IMG/VR virus record: IMGVR_UViG_2713896902_000005 | Coordinates: 1-36,473 of that record | Origin: a virus | Lineage: Duplodnaviria > Heunggongvirae > Uroviricota > Caudoviricetes | Strand: one strand, 5' to 3' | Length of the DNA: 36,473 nt | Shown: in pieces, positions 3,980 through 31,240 of the stretch | Layout of the letters: each line of letters begins with the position of its first letter | Numbering within the stretch: position 1 is the first letter of the stretch | Translations under genes and position numbers: made by a program | The notes under the pieces: generated by a model | Told to the model about the DNA's origin: nothing | Database searches by the model: none | The model's input: only the letters and a program-made list of their open reading frames with translations

Positions 3980-5346
3980 TGCACTGGCACCTTCAGAGGG
4001 ATCACCGGCACAAAGCCGGGATGCGTAATGGCATTACGCCGGATAATGTCCGCGTCACGCGCCGCGTTATCAAACCAGGTCGCCGCCAGCACCAGCGCGG
4101 GTAAAACCTCATCCGGCGTGCGCTGAATGATCCGTGCAGACTGTTCAAGGCGCGTGTTGATATCCGCATTCAGATCTGCTTTCACCCGGCGCAGCGCCAG
4201 AAACAGCGCATCACTGGTTGTACGGGACAACTCCTTATCAATTGCCGTATTCAGTGTGTCGCGAATGTCAGTCAGTTCTTCCCACGTCGGCAGGTCAACC
4301 GTGCTTTTCACCGCCGGTGCATTGTTCAGTGCCGGATGCGTGACGGAAGGCCAGCCAGTGCTCTGCGCGGGTGTTGTTGCCTGCCCCACTGCGGCATTCT
4401 GCATCACCGCGGAAGTTGTTGGCGCAGGCAATCGGGTGACGGCATACGCCGCTTCGCTGATTGCGGTCGTACGAAGGATGCTGGCAACCACGTTACGCTG
4501 CTGCGTCGCCGTGGCGGTGGTTTTACTGTCCGTTTTCCAGACGCCGCGCGGTTGCAGATCGCTGCCGAGGCTGACACCGGAAAGTGTTTTGATCATGGTG
4601 ACCAGGTCGCTGGCGTTACCATAAAGGCGTTTCCCGGTACGCCACATTTTCTGCACCTGCTCAACGAAATTTTTGCCTGACGATGGCGGCGGCAGAAGTA
4701 CCGAGATATCCCCCTGCAACAGCCTGGCGGCATCCGATACGGCAGAATCCACCACTTTCATCGCATCAGAAACATACCCAAGCATTGTGCTGGCATTACC
4801 GACGACGTCGTTCTGCACAAAATCTGCCACGCCATCGATACTGAAACTACTGAAACTGTCACTGATGCAGTCATCCAGTGCAGAACAGGATGACATCAGC
4901 GTCTGCGCCGTCGCCGCACCTGATGTGGGGTAAGAGAGTTCTCCCGCTTCGACAAACTTCAGGTCAAAGCGGACAATACGCCCTTCACTCTTCGATGTGC
5001 TGACCCGAACCTCTCCGTCAACACAGACTTTCAGCTCACCGTAAGTCGGATGGACAAGCGTGCCGGGACCGGGTTTATTCAGCGCGTCAATCAGGCGATC
5101 GCGCTGGTCAAAGCAGTCATCTCCCACCACATAAGCCGTGATGGACGGGCGGAAAGTGACTTTTCCCAGATCTTCGGTATAGGGTTTGTCGCGGTTCGGG
5201 TATTCGTGCGTTTCCACACGACGACCGGTTCCCGCACTTTCTTCTTCAACCTTAAACGGCACACCGCGAAATGACGCGTCCTGAAGTCTGTCTTTCCACG
5301 TCATATAAACTCCGTACATAAAAAATCCCACCGGAGTGGGACTCAT
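3976..5346 (-). CDS. DNA circularisation protein N-like tail protein (Mu gpN-like)
   Basis: 456 aa; N-terminus MSPTPVGFFMYGVYMTWKDRLQDASFRGVPFKVEEE resembles the Mu N family; lies between tape measure and baseplate genes. Confidence 0.6.
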   Translation of the reverse strand: MSPTPVGFFMYGVYMTWKDRLQDASFRGVPFKVEEESAGTGRRVETHEYPNRDKPYTEDLGKVTFRPSITAYVVGDDCFDQRDRLIDALNKPGPGTLVHPTYGELKVCVDGEVRVSTSKSEGRIVRFDLKFVEAGELSYPTSGAATAQTLMSSCSALDDCISDSFSSFSIDGVADFVQNDVVGNASTMLGYVSDAMKVVDSAVSDAARLLQGDISVLLPPPSSGKNFVEQVQKMWRTGKRLYGNASDLVTMIKTLSGVSLGSDLQPRGVWKTDSKTTATATQQRNVVASILRTTAISEAAYAVTRLPAPTTSAVMQNAAVGQATTPAQSTGWPSVTHPALNNAPAVKSTVDLPTWEELTDIRDTLNTAIDKELSRTTSDALFLALRRVKADLNADINTRLEQSARIIQRTPDEVLPALVLAATWFDNAARDADIIRRNAITHPGFVPVIPLKVPVQ

Positions 5347-27237: not shown

Positions 27238-27803
27238 GCGTTAGTTTCTCCACAACCAGAAGCAATCGACGCCACGACGCCCGGAGCTGCACACTCGCGG
27301 GCGTCATTACTTTCTGAAATGCAAAAAATTTTGTAGACAAGTGCTGCATGCTCCTGCAGCTTCGAAATTGAGAGATACAGCTCGTCGTTAATTGCTGTCT
27401 TCTCATGCGGTTCCACTACACCGTCTTCGATTGCTGAACGAATCTGTTTTGAATAACTGCCGATCTGTTCAATGACTTCCAGCAGACGCTGGTTAATATC
27501 GGCGTTGTCCACATCCTCGACGTCAGGAAGAGACACAAAGACGCCATTTGCAGACTGCGCCACAGCATCAGCAATGAAGTGAGTGCCACCAGCACGCTGT
27601 AAAACCATTGCCCATCCCAGCGGAAAAATCTGATCGCCATCTGCACGAAGGCGGTTGAATAAAGCGTTCTCTGTTACATCCAGCCAGTCAGCCGCTTCAG
27701 CGTAACCACCCGGCAACGCCGCGATAGTTTTTCTGACAGCTTTCACGTACCACTCAGGCTGTTTTTCTATTTTCCAGTGATGCTTACCCACGATTAGCCT
27801 CAT
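27234..27803 (-). CDS. CII-like / YdaT-like early regulatory protein
   Basis: 189 aa; position immediately downstream of cro. Confidence 0.4.
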
Positions 27804-27834
27804 CGTTCTGTGGTTAAAAATTGAAAGTGTTCTG

Positions 27835-28035
27835 CTAATCTTTCGGATAGATATCCGGTCTTAAGTCAGATTTCGTAATTGCACCTGACGTGCATTGCTC
27901 AAGTTTTTTAGCCAGCACAAAACTGGCTTTTTTATAGCCATTGAAAACCAGCCGTAAGTAGCCAGGTGTTGAGCCAACTTTTCCGGCCAACTCGCCCTGC
28001 TGTTCTTTGGTTAAAGAGTCCCAATACGCTTTCAT
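27835..28035 (-). CDS. cro: Cro-like HTH repressor (internal ATG start of the 27835-28338 ORF)
   Basis: 66 aa MKAYWDSLTKEQQGELAGKVGSTPGYLRLVFNGYKK...; GGAGG about 9 nt upstream of ATG at 28035; divergent from cI. Confidence 0.6.
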   Translation of the reverse strand: MKAYWDSLTKEQQGELAGKVGSTPGYLRLVFNGYKKASFVLAKKLEQCTSGAITKSDLRPDIYPKD

Positions 28036-28125
28036 ACAACATGTACCTCCTGTATACATATTACATGATTGAAATGAACCTTCAAGATACTTGTACCTTA
28101 ACGGTACAAGGGTTTTAATTTCGTT
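28036..28125. promoter_or_regulatory. cI-cro intergenic switch region with candidate operators
   Basis: Perfect palindrome CTTGTACC-TTAAC-GGTACAAG at 28090-28110 plus related TGTAC sites (CATGTACC, TGTATACA). Confidence 0.55.
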
Positions 28126-28800
28126 ATGAAAACAATCCATGACATCCGGCGGTCTAACGCCAGAAAACTGAGAGATGGTGTTGGCGGGAATTCTTCCTTT
28201 GCCACTATGATTGATCGCGAGCCAACCCAGACCAGCAGGTTTATGGGAGATGGTGCTACTAAAAATATCGGTGACAGCATGGCACGACACATCGAAAAAT
28301 GTTTCGACCTGCCTGTCGGATGGCTCGATCAAGAACACCAGACAACGAACATCACAAAAAAACCTGATGTTTCAATCACTAATAAACAAATCACATTAGT
28401 CCCTGTCATATCATGGGTACAGGCCGGAGCATGGAAAGAAGTTGGATATTCTGAGGTTGATTTGAGCACAGCAGAAACGTATCCCTGCCCTGTACCCTGT
28501 GGGGAAATGACTTATATCTTGCGGGTGATAGGTGATTCAATGATTGATGAGTACCGCCCGGGAGACATGATTTTTGTCGATCCTGAAGTACCTGCCTGCC
28601 ACGGTGACGACGTTATTGCATTGATGCACGATACAGGTGAAACCACCTTCAAAAGGTTGATAGAAGATGGGACACAGCGTTATCTCAAAGCGTTAAACCC
28701 AAACTGGCCTGAGCCTTACATTAAGATCAACGGTAATTGCTCTATAATTGGAACTGTGATTTTCTCAGGAAAACCAAGAAGATACAAAATCAAAGCCTAA
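28126..28800 (+). CDS. cI: CI-like repressor with LexA-type S24 autopeptidase domain
   Basis: 224 aa; N-terminal HTH; C-terminal GDSM serine motif (RVIGDSMIDEYRPGDMIFVD); divergent from cro. Confidence 0.85.
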   Translation: MKTIHDIRRSNARKLRDGVGGNSSFATMIDREPTQTSRFMGDGATKNIGDSMARHIEKCFDLPVGWLDQEHQTTNITKKPDVSITNKQITLVPVISWVQAGAWKEVGYSEVDLSTAETYPCPVPCGEMTYILRVIGDSMIDEYRPGDMIFVDPEVPACHGDDVIALMHDTGETTFKRLIEDGTQRYLKALNPNWPEPYIKINGNCSIIGTVIFSGKPRRYKIKA

Positions 28801-28812
28801 TCAATGTTTATG

Positions 28813-28837
28813 AACCTGCTTCGGCAGGTTTTTTTAT
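28813..28837 (+). terminator. Rho-independent terminator of cI
   Basis: AACCTGC-TTCG-GCAGGTT followed by a 7-T run, 12 nt after the cI stop. Confidence 0.7.
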
Positions 28838-28839
28838 AC

Positions 28840-28872
28840 TTGACAATGTACCCATGAGATACATATTGTACC
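28840..28872 (+). promoter_or_regulatory. Candidate PL/OL-like promoter-operator region
   Basis: TTGACA at 28840-28845 followed by operator-like half-sites ATGTACCC and ATTGTACC similar to those between cI and cro. Confidence 0.3.
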
Positions 28873-28951
28873 AAAGAGAAACAACAAACAGGCAGGACGC
28901 CCACGAAGTAGCCGCCAGGGGCATATGAAGTCCTGGATGATTCGTTAGTAA

Positions 28952-28976
28952 CAAAAAAAGCGTCGTACAGGACGCT
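28952..28976 (-). terminator. Rho-independent terminator of the DUF1311-like gene
   Basis: Minus-strand RNA AGCGUC-CUGUAC-GACGCU followed by a 7-U run. Confidence 0.55.
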
Positions 28977-29000
28977 TCGCTCTTTAACAATCTGGATGAC

Positions 29001-29516
29001 TTATCGGTCAGATTTAAACTGGGGTTCTGGCAAAACTGGTGGTGTTGAATCTTCAAATCGTAACCAGTGTTCCCAAATATCATGTGTTCGTAATTTCTGT
29101 AGACTAATTTGACGCGATGCAATTGCGGAATTAGTGGTTACTCCACCAGAAGCATCGCTCTCTACTGACGTTGAGGCTTTTTCTACTAATTCTGACCAAG
29201 CTTCACTTTCTGCGTCAAAAGCTTCTGTTAAGTCCCGCAGACGCTGTGGCTCATTTTTATGGTCTTCCTTCAAACGATTCAAAGCGGCAGTTGAATACTT
29301 ATTCCTGACCCATTCGATCTGAGTTAGCTGAATCCGCAGACAATTATCTATATCAATGGTTGTGTTCTGAGGCATGTCAGAACAAGAAATATAAAAGGTC
29401 ACAACTCCACCGTTCAAACTACTGCCCGGTTCGATTAAAACATTAGAGGAATTTGACGTAGTCGGCAATATTAATGCTAACGACAAAACCACATGTTTAA
29501 CAGAAATCGCACCCAT
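29001..29516 (-). CDS. Secreted/periplasmic protein, DUF1311 (LprI-like) candidate; lysogeny-expressed moron
   Basis: 171 aa with N-terminal signal-peptide-like segment (MGAISVKHVVLSLALILPTTS); convergent with cI; own terminator; moderately AT-rich. Confidence 0.45.
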   Translation of the reverse strand: MGAISVKHVVLSLALILPTTSNSSNVLIEPGSSLNGGVVTFYISCSDMPQNTTIDIDNCLRIQLTQIEWVRNKYSTAALNRLKEDHKNEPQRLRDLTEAFDAESEAWSELVEKASTSVESDASGGVTTNSAIASRQISLQKLRTHDIWEHWLRFEDSTPPVLPEPQFKSDR

Positions 29517-29803
29517 TTAAATTGCCCTCTTAAGAACAAGGTCATCCAGATTAACCGAAACCTGGTTATTGGGGAATAACCAAATCCACCTCGCCTGATG
29601 TGGCTAAAAGCAGGCACATAACAGCTAAGTATTTTCAACCAGAGAGAATCCTTAGCGTTGTGGTGAATGCGCAGGCTGATGCGCGAAAGACATTGCAGCT
29701 ATTGCGGAAAAGAGCTGTTCGGCGGGGCAATTAAATGCCTGTGAGAGTCTGAAATAACCGCAAGCCGGAGATCAGCACCGGTCACCACAACAGCCACTGC
29801 TTT

Positions 29804-29840
29804 GGCGGTACCAGTTTGTACACTTACTTCCGGCTGGTAC
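29804..29840 (+). terminator. Terminator-like hairpin in the early-left leader
   Basis: GCGGTACCAG...CTGGTACCGC (10-bp stem, 19-nt loop) followed by TCTTTTT. Confidence 0.4.
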
Positions 29841-29929
29841 CGCTCTTTTTACAAAACAGAGAAGAGCATCACCGGACGACGGGCTCATAACCCAATCCAT
29901 CCGGGCGGCTGCCACCGCAGGTGTTCTTC
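29841..29929. repeat. Perfect 15-bp inverted repeat with 59-bp spacer
   Basis: ACAAAACAGAGAAGA (29841-29855) and TCTTCTCTGTTTTGT (29915-29929). Confidence 0.7.
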
Positions 29930-29987
29930 TCTGTTTTGTGGAGAAACCAACCGGCCTTGCAGGGTCGATATGATGAGGAGCAGCAAA

Positions 29988-30350
29988 ATGGCTAGCGAAC
30001 GCAGTACCAACGTGCAGGAATTTATCGGGGAGCTGGACGGCGGCGTATTTGAAACCAAAATCGGCGCAGTTCTCAGTGAAGTCGCTTCCGGTGTGATGAA
30101 CACGAAAACCAAAGGTAAGGTCTCGCTCAACCTGGAAATCGAACCATTTGATGAGAACCGTGTGAAAATCAAACACAAACTCTCATATGTTCGCCCGACT
30201 AACCGCGGGAAAATTTCTGAAGAAGACACCACCGAAACGCCGATGTATGTCAATCGCGGTGGTCGCCTGACTATTCTGCAGGAAGACCAGGGACAATTAC
30301 TGACTCTTGCCGGTGAACCTGACGGAAAACTACGCGCAGCAGGTCATTAA
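29988..30350 (+). CDS. yfdP: YfdP-like early-left protein (internal ATG of the 29802 ORF)
   Basis: 120 aa from ATG 29988 with GAGGAG 7 nt upstream; length and order match the E. coli CPS-53 yfdP-Q-R-S cluster (recalled, not searched). Confidence 0.45.
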   Translation: MASERSTNVQEFIGELDGGVFETKIGAVLSEVASGVMNTKTKGKVSLNLEIEPFDENRVKIKHKLSYVRPTNRGKISEEDTTETPMYVNRGGRLTILQEDQGQLLTLAGEPDGKLRAAGH

Positions 30351-30415
30351 TATCGTTCTTAATTAACTGATTATTTATCTCATCACTGAATATCTTTATA
30401 TAGTGAGGACTTATT

Positions 30416-31240
30416 ATGTCTCAGAGCTTAGACGCAACCGCAATTAATCAAATCCATGCCCTTATTTCTGCTCAGGGTGTTAATGAAATTATCAGTAAGA
30501 TTGGTGCCGATGCTGTGGCATTGCCTGAGAATTTCCGCATTCATGATCTGGAAAAATTTAATTTAAATCGCTTCCGTTTCCGTGGTGCGCTTTCCACTGC
30601 CTGCATCGATGACTTTACCCGTTATTCTAAAGATCTTGCAGATGAAGGCACCCGCTGCTTTATCGATGCCGATAATATGCGTGCCGTCAGTGTGCTTAAC
30701 CTGGGTACTATTGATGAACCAGGTCACGCAGATAACACCGCCACTCTCAAACTGAAAAAGACAGCACCGTTCTCTGCACTGTTGTCTGTTAACGGCGAGC
30801 GTAACTCCCAGAAGTCTCTGGCAGAATGGATTGAAGACTGGGCCGACTACCTTGTGGGCTTTGATGCTAATGGTGATGCCATTCAGGCAACAAAAGCGGC
30901 TGCGGCGGTCCGTAAAATCACGATTGAAGCAAACCAGACTGCTGATTTTGAAGATAATGACTTCAGCGGCAAACGCTCCCTGATGGAGTCTGTCGAAGCG
31001 AAGACCAAAGACATTATGCCAGTGGCATTTGAGTTTAAATGCGTTCCGTTTGAAGGTCTGAAAGAACGTCCGTTTAAATTACGCCTCAGCATTATCACTG
31101 GCGATCGTCCGGTACTGGTTCTGCGCATTATTCAGCTGGAAGCGGTGCAGGAAGATATGGCTAACGAATTTCGTGATCTGCTTGTTGAGAAATTCAAGGA
31201 CAGCAAAGTAGAAACCTTTATTGGGACTTTCACCGCCTGA
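30416..31240 (+). CDS. yfdQ: YfdQ-like protein (DUF2303)
   Basis: 274 aa; good RBS; length and synteny match CPS-53 yfdQ. Confidence 0.5.

Follow-up and report, generated by a model that had tools for sequence, protein, structure and literature searches.

A divergent prophage-borne DUF1311 protein as cargo of an inverted-repeat-bracketed swap cassette beside a cI-like repressor gene

Why should a temperate phage carry a small gene for a probable envelope protein immediately beside its repressor, and what might that gene do? The question is raised by the IMG/VR virus record IMGVR_UViG_2713896902_000005 (positions 1 to 36,473; hereafter 'the window', meaning the whole 36,473-nt stretch that was analysed), in which a 171-amino-acid (aa) open reading frame (ORF) lies on the minus strand next to a cI-like repressor gene (Table 1). 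An earlier annotation made from the letters alone (the sequence-only reading) had proposed here a real, independently terminated gene, convergent with cI, whose product is probably exported and resembles DUF1311/LprI proteins. The ORF is indeed a genuine gene under purifying selection and not a chance frame: it has a ribosome-binding site and its own terminator, its product matches phrog_7681 end to end (1.1e-78), and pairwise Nei–Gojobori ratios of non-synonymous to synonymous divergence (dN/dS) among five of its alleles are 0.11–0.21. The terminator hairpin is kept in UTI89, Klebsiella, PhiR29_1 and SfIV; the start coordinate of the sequence-only reading, 28952, thus takes in this terminator 3' of the ORF. 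With the ORF on the minus strand, cI on the plus strand and a terminator for each, the two genes are convergent. An Rfam search of 27800–30500 returned nothing meaningful.

The family call holds, though the support for it is indirect. Against the Pfam profile PF07007 (LprI) the protein gives a near-full-length match (profile positions 1–104 of 106; E = 0.0094) that scores 16.8 bits, under the gathering cut-off of 22; no NCBIfam model matches the protein. Its relatives are more informative. In a search of 5.8 billion proteins we found 13 close relatives, and phmmer on the same set linked the protein to six PF07007-positive proteins of Vibrio and Agarivorans (28–34% identity, E 5e-8 to 3e-4), with which it aligns over the whole domain and has in common a C-terminal block, RTHxIWxxFLxxxDSTPPVLPEP. 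A joint profile of the close and distant groups drew 1,977 cluster representatives at E <= 1e-3; nine of ten sampled proteins from this profile search were above the PF07007 cut-off, while the tenth (P0022, 171 aa, 16.8 bits) is probably the close family's own representative. Finally, hhalign placed the profile of the prophage clade against that of 15 relatives, those sampled being PF07007-positive, with a probability of 99.7% (E = 2e-26).

Structure points the same way. The sole match by sequence in the PDB is 3GI7 (P. putida PP0307), titled as a secreted protein and reached with the profile at E = 0.036. The AlphaFold2 model (mean predicted local distance difference test, pLDDT, 76.9; predicted template modelling score, pTM, 0.72) has disordered residues 1–25, a beta-hairpin at 31–43, helices at 53–85, 90–120 and 128–154, and a C-terminal strand at 164–169, and it contains a helical bundle of the kind seen in 3GI7. 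DUF1311 proteins have four cysteines in two disulfides; here the only cysteines are C45 and C59, and the second pair of the family is replaced across the whole prophage clade. A DUF1311/LprI-type three-helix bundle with one disulfide is thus strongly supported as the core. The modelled beta-hairpin falls within a 16-residue insertion found only in the prophage clade, and the model strongly supports a packing of this clade-specific hairpin on the conserved C-terminal tail, DSTPPVLPEP. Because the relatives' alignments, the hhalign comparison and the model agree, membership of the DUF1311 superfamily is well supported, and the protein is a new, divergent, prophage-borne member of it. From the PF07007 family at large (3GI7 and the Vibrio/Agarivorans proteins P0014–P0019) it differs in its score under the Pfam cut-off, in the loss of the second cysteine pair and the gain of the N-terminal insertion, and in being carried by a prophage, where the genes of the relatives examined are chromosomal. 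Of these, the one from Agarivorans stands by itself. Two from different Vibrio species (L007 6001–9853; L016 7001–10847), the nearest PF07007-positive relatives, head a conserved operon for six small proteins without Pfam hits, one of which belongs to the NCBIfam 'PA3715 family' and another of which has weak hits to tetratricopeptide (TPR) repeats.

The same protein is probably exported, as had been proposed. Its N-terminus has a basic n-region (K7/H8), a hydrophobic core of 9–10 residues (VVLSLALIL, Kyte–Doolittle 3.2) and, after P18, a small polar c-region, TTSNS|S. This n/h/c layout is kept across the homologues with small residues at -3/-1, the close homologues reading ASNA|SD at the aligned position and the distant relatives having classic AxA signal peptides. 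The conserved cysteine pair and the secreted-protein title of 3GI7 speak for export as well. The predicted mature protein is of ~148 aa and acidic (isoelectric point, pI, 4.6–4.8). Lipid anchoring was considered and set aside, there being no lipobox and the first cysteine, residue 45, lying well past the hydrophobic core. The features of the sequence thus argue strongly for a Sec-exported, soluble, acidic periplasmic protein that is not lipid-anchored.

What surrounds the gene is a more unusual feature than the protein itself: a boxA-adjacent cassette bracketed by inverted repeats, whose boundaries are common to unrelated genes. The two arms form a perfect 12-nt inverted repeat around the ORF. 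In phages with near-identical cI this slot has other contents, namely orf33 on the plus strand in SfV, a gene for a coiled-coil plus zinc-ribbon protein in PhiR29_1 (L018) and SfIV_36 in SfIV (L019), while in Ayreon and cdtI the whole module 28898–29782 is absent. Homology of the window to PhiR29_1 or SfIV ends at 28997/28995 and restarts at 29544/29546, inside the arms. Around unrelated cargo the arms recur with another inner sequence (GGATATCC..CAACA), in DUF1311 cassettes the two sides read GATGAC(T)/(A)GTCATC, and the inner bases covary, GATATC versus GATGAC, in both arms. UTI89 (L002), L008, L009, L010 and L011 also have the arms.

The cassette is widespread in viral data. A search of IMG/VR with the left junction (boxA plus arm) found at least 120 contigs, and the 69 loci with both arms that we analysed carry 50 distinct cargo sequences of 350–830 bp. 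These belong to six unrelated protein families, four with PHROGs of unknown function and none with a Pfam or PADLOC assignment. In all 69 loci the cargo ORF faces away from pL, and in most of them it starts ~37 nt from the right arm's outer end. Apart from the DUF1311 family, the cargo consists of a 144-aa SfIV_36-like protein (phrog_5286), a 171-aa coiled-coil plus CxxC...CxxC protein (phrog_1244), a 148–166-aa protein with two transmembrane (TM) segments (phrog_6315) that faintly resembles 2TM defence effectors (E 0.01), an 87-aa protein and a 160-aa multi-TM protein. IMG/VR loci L117, L109, L137, L072 and L096 represent these five families. That the cI-adjacent slot is a site for accessory genes, as the sequence-only reading had it, is therefore borne out by the unrelated genes found there both in same-cI phages and in the 69 loci.

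The arms are more complementary to each other than in a shuffle control: 189 of 248 paired cells are complementary, against 172 +/- 3 after shuffling, and none of 5,000 shuffles reached 189. The double changes stem mostly from the DUF1311 group and so may trace to few events. On folding, the 5' arm pairs with the 3' arm in all 13 of the cassettes folded (probability 0.72–0.99) if the transcript starts upstream of the right arm. With TAATCT as the -10, however, the arm would be largely untranscribed in the cargo mRNA, and pairing would then matter in the pL transcript or in the DNA. The arms may work as RNA, through 5'–3' pairing or as a stem within the pL transcript, or else as DNA. Of two other interpretations, transposon ends with a target-site duplication were rejected, as the base triplet outside the right arm varies, and an invertible, phase-variable segment found no support, as 142 of the 144 E. 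coli genomes with the gene are colinear with the window and the ORF has one orientation in the 69 viral loci.

A phage moron is a promoter–gene–terminator unit inserted between backbone genes. The gene studied here has its own terminator and a GC content of 41% (50.6% for the whole window), it is swapped or absent among same-cI phages, and its promoter is a weak prediction; on these features it is an autonomous cargo unit of the moron kind, the weak promoter probably being its own as well. It resembles lambda rexAB/sieB and morons in being an immunity-adjacent, low-GC accessory gene with its own terminator in a variable slot, and differs from them in that its cassette is bracketed by covarying inverted repeats common to unrelated cargo genes.

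The position of the slot relative to the immunity region can be specified further. Over the entire 36 kb, and with two mismatches or fewer allowed, the motif TGTACC-N5-GGTACA is matched between cro and cI (28042 and 28092), inside cI (28491) and at 28847 and 28867, all of these matches being confined to 28042–28883; a three-mismatch match lies at 28075, between cro and cI. The pair at 28847/28867 (TGTACC-N5-nnTACA), a candidate left operator (OL), is directly 3' of the cI terminator and overlaps a strong pL-like promoter, which is the best-scoring promoter of the region, points antisense into the ORF and is annotated as a promoter in the record of phage Ayreon. About 110 nt downstream of this promoter is a consensus boxA, for which rrn boxA (UGCUCUUUA and ACAAUUUA) and the lambda sequence CGCUCUUA served as comparison (PMC2724277). 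Read on the plus strand, the hairpin that is the ORF terminator on the minus strand is followed at once by boxA; this hairpin-then-boxA order is that of rrn, and it suggests an antitermination site of the nutL type. The ORF would thus presumably lie inside the early-left unit, antisense to it, between pL and yfdP/yfdQ/yfdR...xis-int. The sequence-only reading had equated the slot with that of lambda rexAB and sieB, and this stands in part: the slot is a cI-adjacent hot spot for cargo. A rexAB-type gene, on the other hand, would lie between cI and OL/pL and be co-transcribed with cI, whereas here candidate OL, pL and boxA separate cI from the gene, which is on the opposite strand, and the gene is for that reason not at the rexAB position.

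What, then, might the protein do? We tentatively favour, with a probability of about 0.4, a periplasmic binder that neutralizes an incoming peptidoglycan hydrolase, by orphan immunity or by a Spackle-like function. In a lysogen the cI-type repressor would shut the pL-like promoter, leaving the cargo gene to be transcribed without interference, while after induction the gene would be traversed in antisense by antiterminated transcription of the early-left unit; from the anatomy of the locus we infer such a lysogen-on, induction-off logic of expression. Once exported, the protein would bind and neutralize, stoichiometrically, a peptidoglycan-cleaving enzyme that arrives in the periplasm from outside, the candidates being a toxin resembling lysozyme or pesticin (of type VI secretion system, T6SS, or bacteriocin origin) and the tail lysozyme of a superinfecting phage, and would thereby serve the lysogen as an 'orphan immunity' gene. 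Spackle (Sp, gp61.3), a small helical protein that phage T4 encodes and that resides in the periplasm, blocks the tail lysozyme of superinfecting phage; for the mechanism proposed here it is a functional analogue only. Closer in domain is Etsi4 of E. coli O157, a DUF1311 protein that neutralizes Etse4, a periplasmic, cell-wall-targeting T6SS effector (PMC12981562). Both Etsi4 and the window protein, whose export is a prediction, are small, enterobacterial and of the DUF1311 type; Etsi4 has four cysteines and its gene sits directly beside that of the effector in a T6SS cluster, unlike the gene in the window. Further, LprI-domain proteins of Pantoea are predicted immunity partners of pesticin-like effectors, and a survey of WHIX effectors, mainly from Vibrio, cites the LprI domain as earlier implicated in T6SS immunity.

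Several observations weigh against this reading. No effector or hydrolase gene adjoins the window gene (its neighbours are cI and yfdP/yfdQ), and those relatives from Vibrio and Agarivorans that were examined likewise have no such gene, nor toxin or T6SS genes, nearby. The neighbourhood therefore offers no guilt by association, and if this is an immunity gene, it is an orphan. A direct link to Etsi4 was sought and rejected (hhalign probability 1%, a relationship at superfamily level only), and the match to TsiV3 is no better than those to several unrelated helical bundles. The protein is without the second disulfide of its family, and the promoter of its gene is weak by consensus, with a -10 that is itself predicted. 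The slot itself implies no envelope function, since its five further cargo families consist of cytoplasmic or membrane proteins. Lastly, ScwA of Salmonella is the single protein with DUF1311 as its only domain to have been assayed for lysozyme protection, and its deletion left lysozyme sensitivity unchanged and altered the levels of the cell's own MltD (PMC7933661). A more specific version, in which the gene provides orphan immunity against muramidase-type toxins as swap-cassette cargo, and in which the arms and the boxA near pL couple its expression to lysogeny or enable the cargo to be looped out of, or processed from, the early-left transcript, seems to us doubtful.

ScwA (SL1344_0490) also embodies the first of the alternatives, namely that a DUF1311 protein acts on the host's own peptidoglycan-remodelling enzymes (lytic transglycosylases such as MltD) and alters cell-wall homeostasis or envelope properties of the lysogen, no foreign enzyme being blocked. 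It is soluble, periplasmic and horizontally acquired, its only recognized domain is LprI/DUF1311, and it controls MltD levels without protecting against lysozyme (PMC7933661); the window protein has the same compartment and fold, both by prediction. Yet ScwA is chromosomal and not prophage cargo, and at 275 aa it has a large extra N-terminal region and two disulfides, whereas the window protein is reduced to a minimal domain that has a single disulfide and whose C-terminal tail differs. We found no sequence relationship between them beyond the superfamily, and the divergence of the prophage alleles (synonymous divergence, dS, ~1) would suit a role in conflict better than one in housekeeping modulation, which makes a ScwA-like function unlikely. 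Improbable, too, is superinfection exclusion or anti-phage defence unrelated to hydrolases, by which the protein would block receptor use, tail-tip insertion or passage of DNA. Exclusion genes occupy immunity-adjacent slots of temperate phages (rexAB/sieB in lambda, sieA/sieB in P22), and a hyper-variable single-gene slot beside the immunity region, filled by six unrelated small proteins including two-TM and multi-TM ones, is much like these. A PADLOC search, however, gave no defence-system match for the DUF1311 protein or the other five cargo families, and we found no DUF1311 precedent for such a role in the open-access papers searched.

Protection against the lysozyme of an animal host, as a virulence or colonization factor in lysogens of E. 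albertii and extraintestinal pathogenic E. coli (ExPEC), appears very unlikely in spite of the Pfam name 'lysozyme inhibitor LprI'. Its appeal lies in the carriers, which include the extraintestinal pathogenic strains UTI89, CFT073, IHE3034 and APEC O18, in the acidity of the mature protein, which would suit the binding of a basic lysozyme, and in the precedent of M. tuberculosis LprI (Rv1541c), the namesake of the family, which has the DUF1311 domain and an extracytoplasmic location in common with the window protein. According to PMC7933661, though, M. tuberculosis LprI is a lipoprotein with an additional MliC domain that alone suffices for inhibition, and because of this second domain the label 'lysozyme inhibitor' is without direct experimental support for the LprI domain, a view that the lysozyme-neutral deletion of ScwA reinforces. 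The window protein has neither a lipobox nor, by Pfam, an MliC, PliC or Ivy domain, and on its sequence it falls outside the lipoprotein/MliC lysozyme inhibitors. Most improbable in our view is that the protein is not exported or that the gene is a decaying passenger without current function. The c-region of the window allele (TSNS|S) is admittedly less canonical than AxA, and truncated or interrupted copies of the homologue exist (P0004, P0012, P0013, L011); against this stand the low dN/dS of the five alleles, the retention of the n/h/c layout, the cysteine pair and the C-terminal motif, and that of the same slot in several genera.

The gene has a notable distribution. An identical protein is recorded on ~40 E. 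albertii contigs, and among 5,426 complete E. coli genomes 144 (about 2.7%), including NU14, have at the corresponding site a copy ~75% identical in DNA. Further homologues are found in Klebsiella, Raoultella and one Erwiniaceae genome, and in prophages of both E. coli and Klebsiella the gene fills the same slot. The ORFs of the window and of UTI89 share 74.8% identity (dS ~1), in contrast to 99.3% for cI and 98.6% for yfdP, and we therefore regard them as old alleles swapped into young backbones. Among viral data the carriers are PHROG 7681 and three IMG/VR contigs; tblastn of the protein against 50,697 deposited phage genome records gave no match, nor did the viral structures of BFVD, for which reason we call it uncommon among catalogued phages, though it is common in prophages of some pathogens. 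Every source names the homologue 'hypothetical', and a literature search for its RefSeq accession, WP_000500990, found no paper.

For this 'hypothetical' family in prophages of uropathogenic (UPEC) and avian pathogenic (APEC) E. coli, E. albertii and Klebsiella, placement in DUF1311 provides a concrete hypothesis, that of a prophage-supplied periplasmic blocker of cell-wall-cutting enzymes. Were it true, prophages would count among the mobile elements through which immunity to contact-dependent or secreted toxins spreads, and under the orphan-immunity reading lysogeny would protect the host in interbacterial or phage warfare. The architecture of the slot, in which a repressor-controlled promoter and boxA face antisense cargo and the same boundaries enclose at least six unrelated families, may serve as a compact model of the means by which temperate phages swap their accessory genes and confine them to lysogens.

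Table 1. Features of the cassette and of the adjoining immunity region, in window coordinates.
Feature	Position	Strand	Remarks
cI-like repressor (helix-turn-helix + S24 peptidase)	28126-28800	+	Peptidase_S24 1.5e-26; phrog_4 1.7e-49
cI terminator	28812-28831	+	Own terminator of the cI-like gene
pL-like promoter	28840-28869	+	TTGACA-N18-TATTGT (or N16-CATATT); sigma70-like, score 12.8
Candidate OL	28847-28883		Operator-like 17-mers TGTACCCATGAGATACA and TGTACCAAAGAGAAACA; match cro-cI intergenic sites
ORF intrinsic terminator	28950-28978	-	8-bp stem 28978-28957, 6-nt loop, seven T
Consensus boxA + rrn-like spacer	28978-28991 (boxA 28978-28986)	+	CGCTCTTTA, spacer ACAAT; candidate nutL-type site
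Left inverted-repeat arm	28989-29000		AATCTGGATGAC; directly after ORF stop codon; cassette boundary
ORF	29001-29516	-	171 aa, ATG start; DUF1311/LprI-superfamily protein
Predicted Sec signal peptide	29448-29516 (codons 1-23)	-	n/h/c features
Shine-Dalgarno	29525-29531	-	AAGAGGG; 8 nt 5' of ORF ATG; read from sequence
Right inverted-repeat arm	29541-29552		GTCATCCAGATT; 25-36 nt 5' of ATG; overlaps candidate -10; other cassette boundary
Leader/promoter module	29544-29782		Upstream of cargo gene; from sequence comparison
Sigma70-like promoter candidate	29548-29576	-	-35 TTCCCC 29571-29576, 17-nt spacer, -10 TAATCT 29548-29553; prediction
Leader hairpin	29564-29581		GGTTATTGGGGAATAACC; within leader module

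Although the coding sequence is no more than 72–75% identical, the ~80–110 nt upstream of the cargo gene (29544–29626, part of the leader module) hardly vary among E. albertii, E. coli and Klebsiella, and the same module precedes the unrelated cargo genes of PhiR29_1 and SfIV. A consensus scan of the minus strand upstream of the ORF gave no promoter-like site. A strong sigma70 promoter for the ORF was accordingly rejected in favour of the weak TTCCCC-17-TAATCT, whose TAATCT recurs in all the homologous loci examined. The leader hairpin retains its pairing in other loci, as G-U, only when the plus strand is read. Farther upstream, the window (29627–29802) and UTI89 (4826–4998) do not align, with flanks that are 97–99% identical; in UTI89 this stretch, between the cargo leader and yfdP, is annotated by PGAP as a frameshifted pseudogene.

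At the opposite end of the cassette, the 17-mer GCTCTTTAACAATCTGG also occurs in 34 IMG/VR loci (among L022–L141; e.g. L033, L036, L048, L079, L121) that have no right arm within 4 kb, so that the boxA-plus-arm motif has a wider distribution than the cassette. In two of these loci, L079 and L121, the exact motif is followed ~250 nt downstream by a near-copy. In the presumed early-left unit, just 5' of the yfdP start at 29982, there is in addition a 25-nt inverted repeat (29851–29875/29915–29939; 84% complementary, 39 nt apart), a possible attenuator, terminator or processing stem of the early-left transcript.

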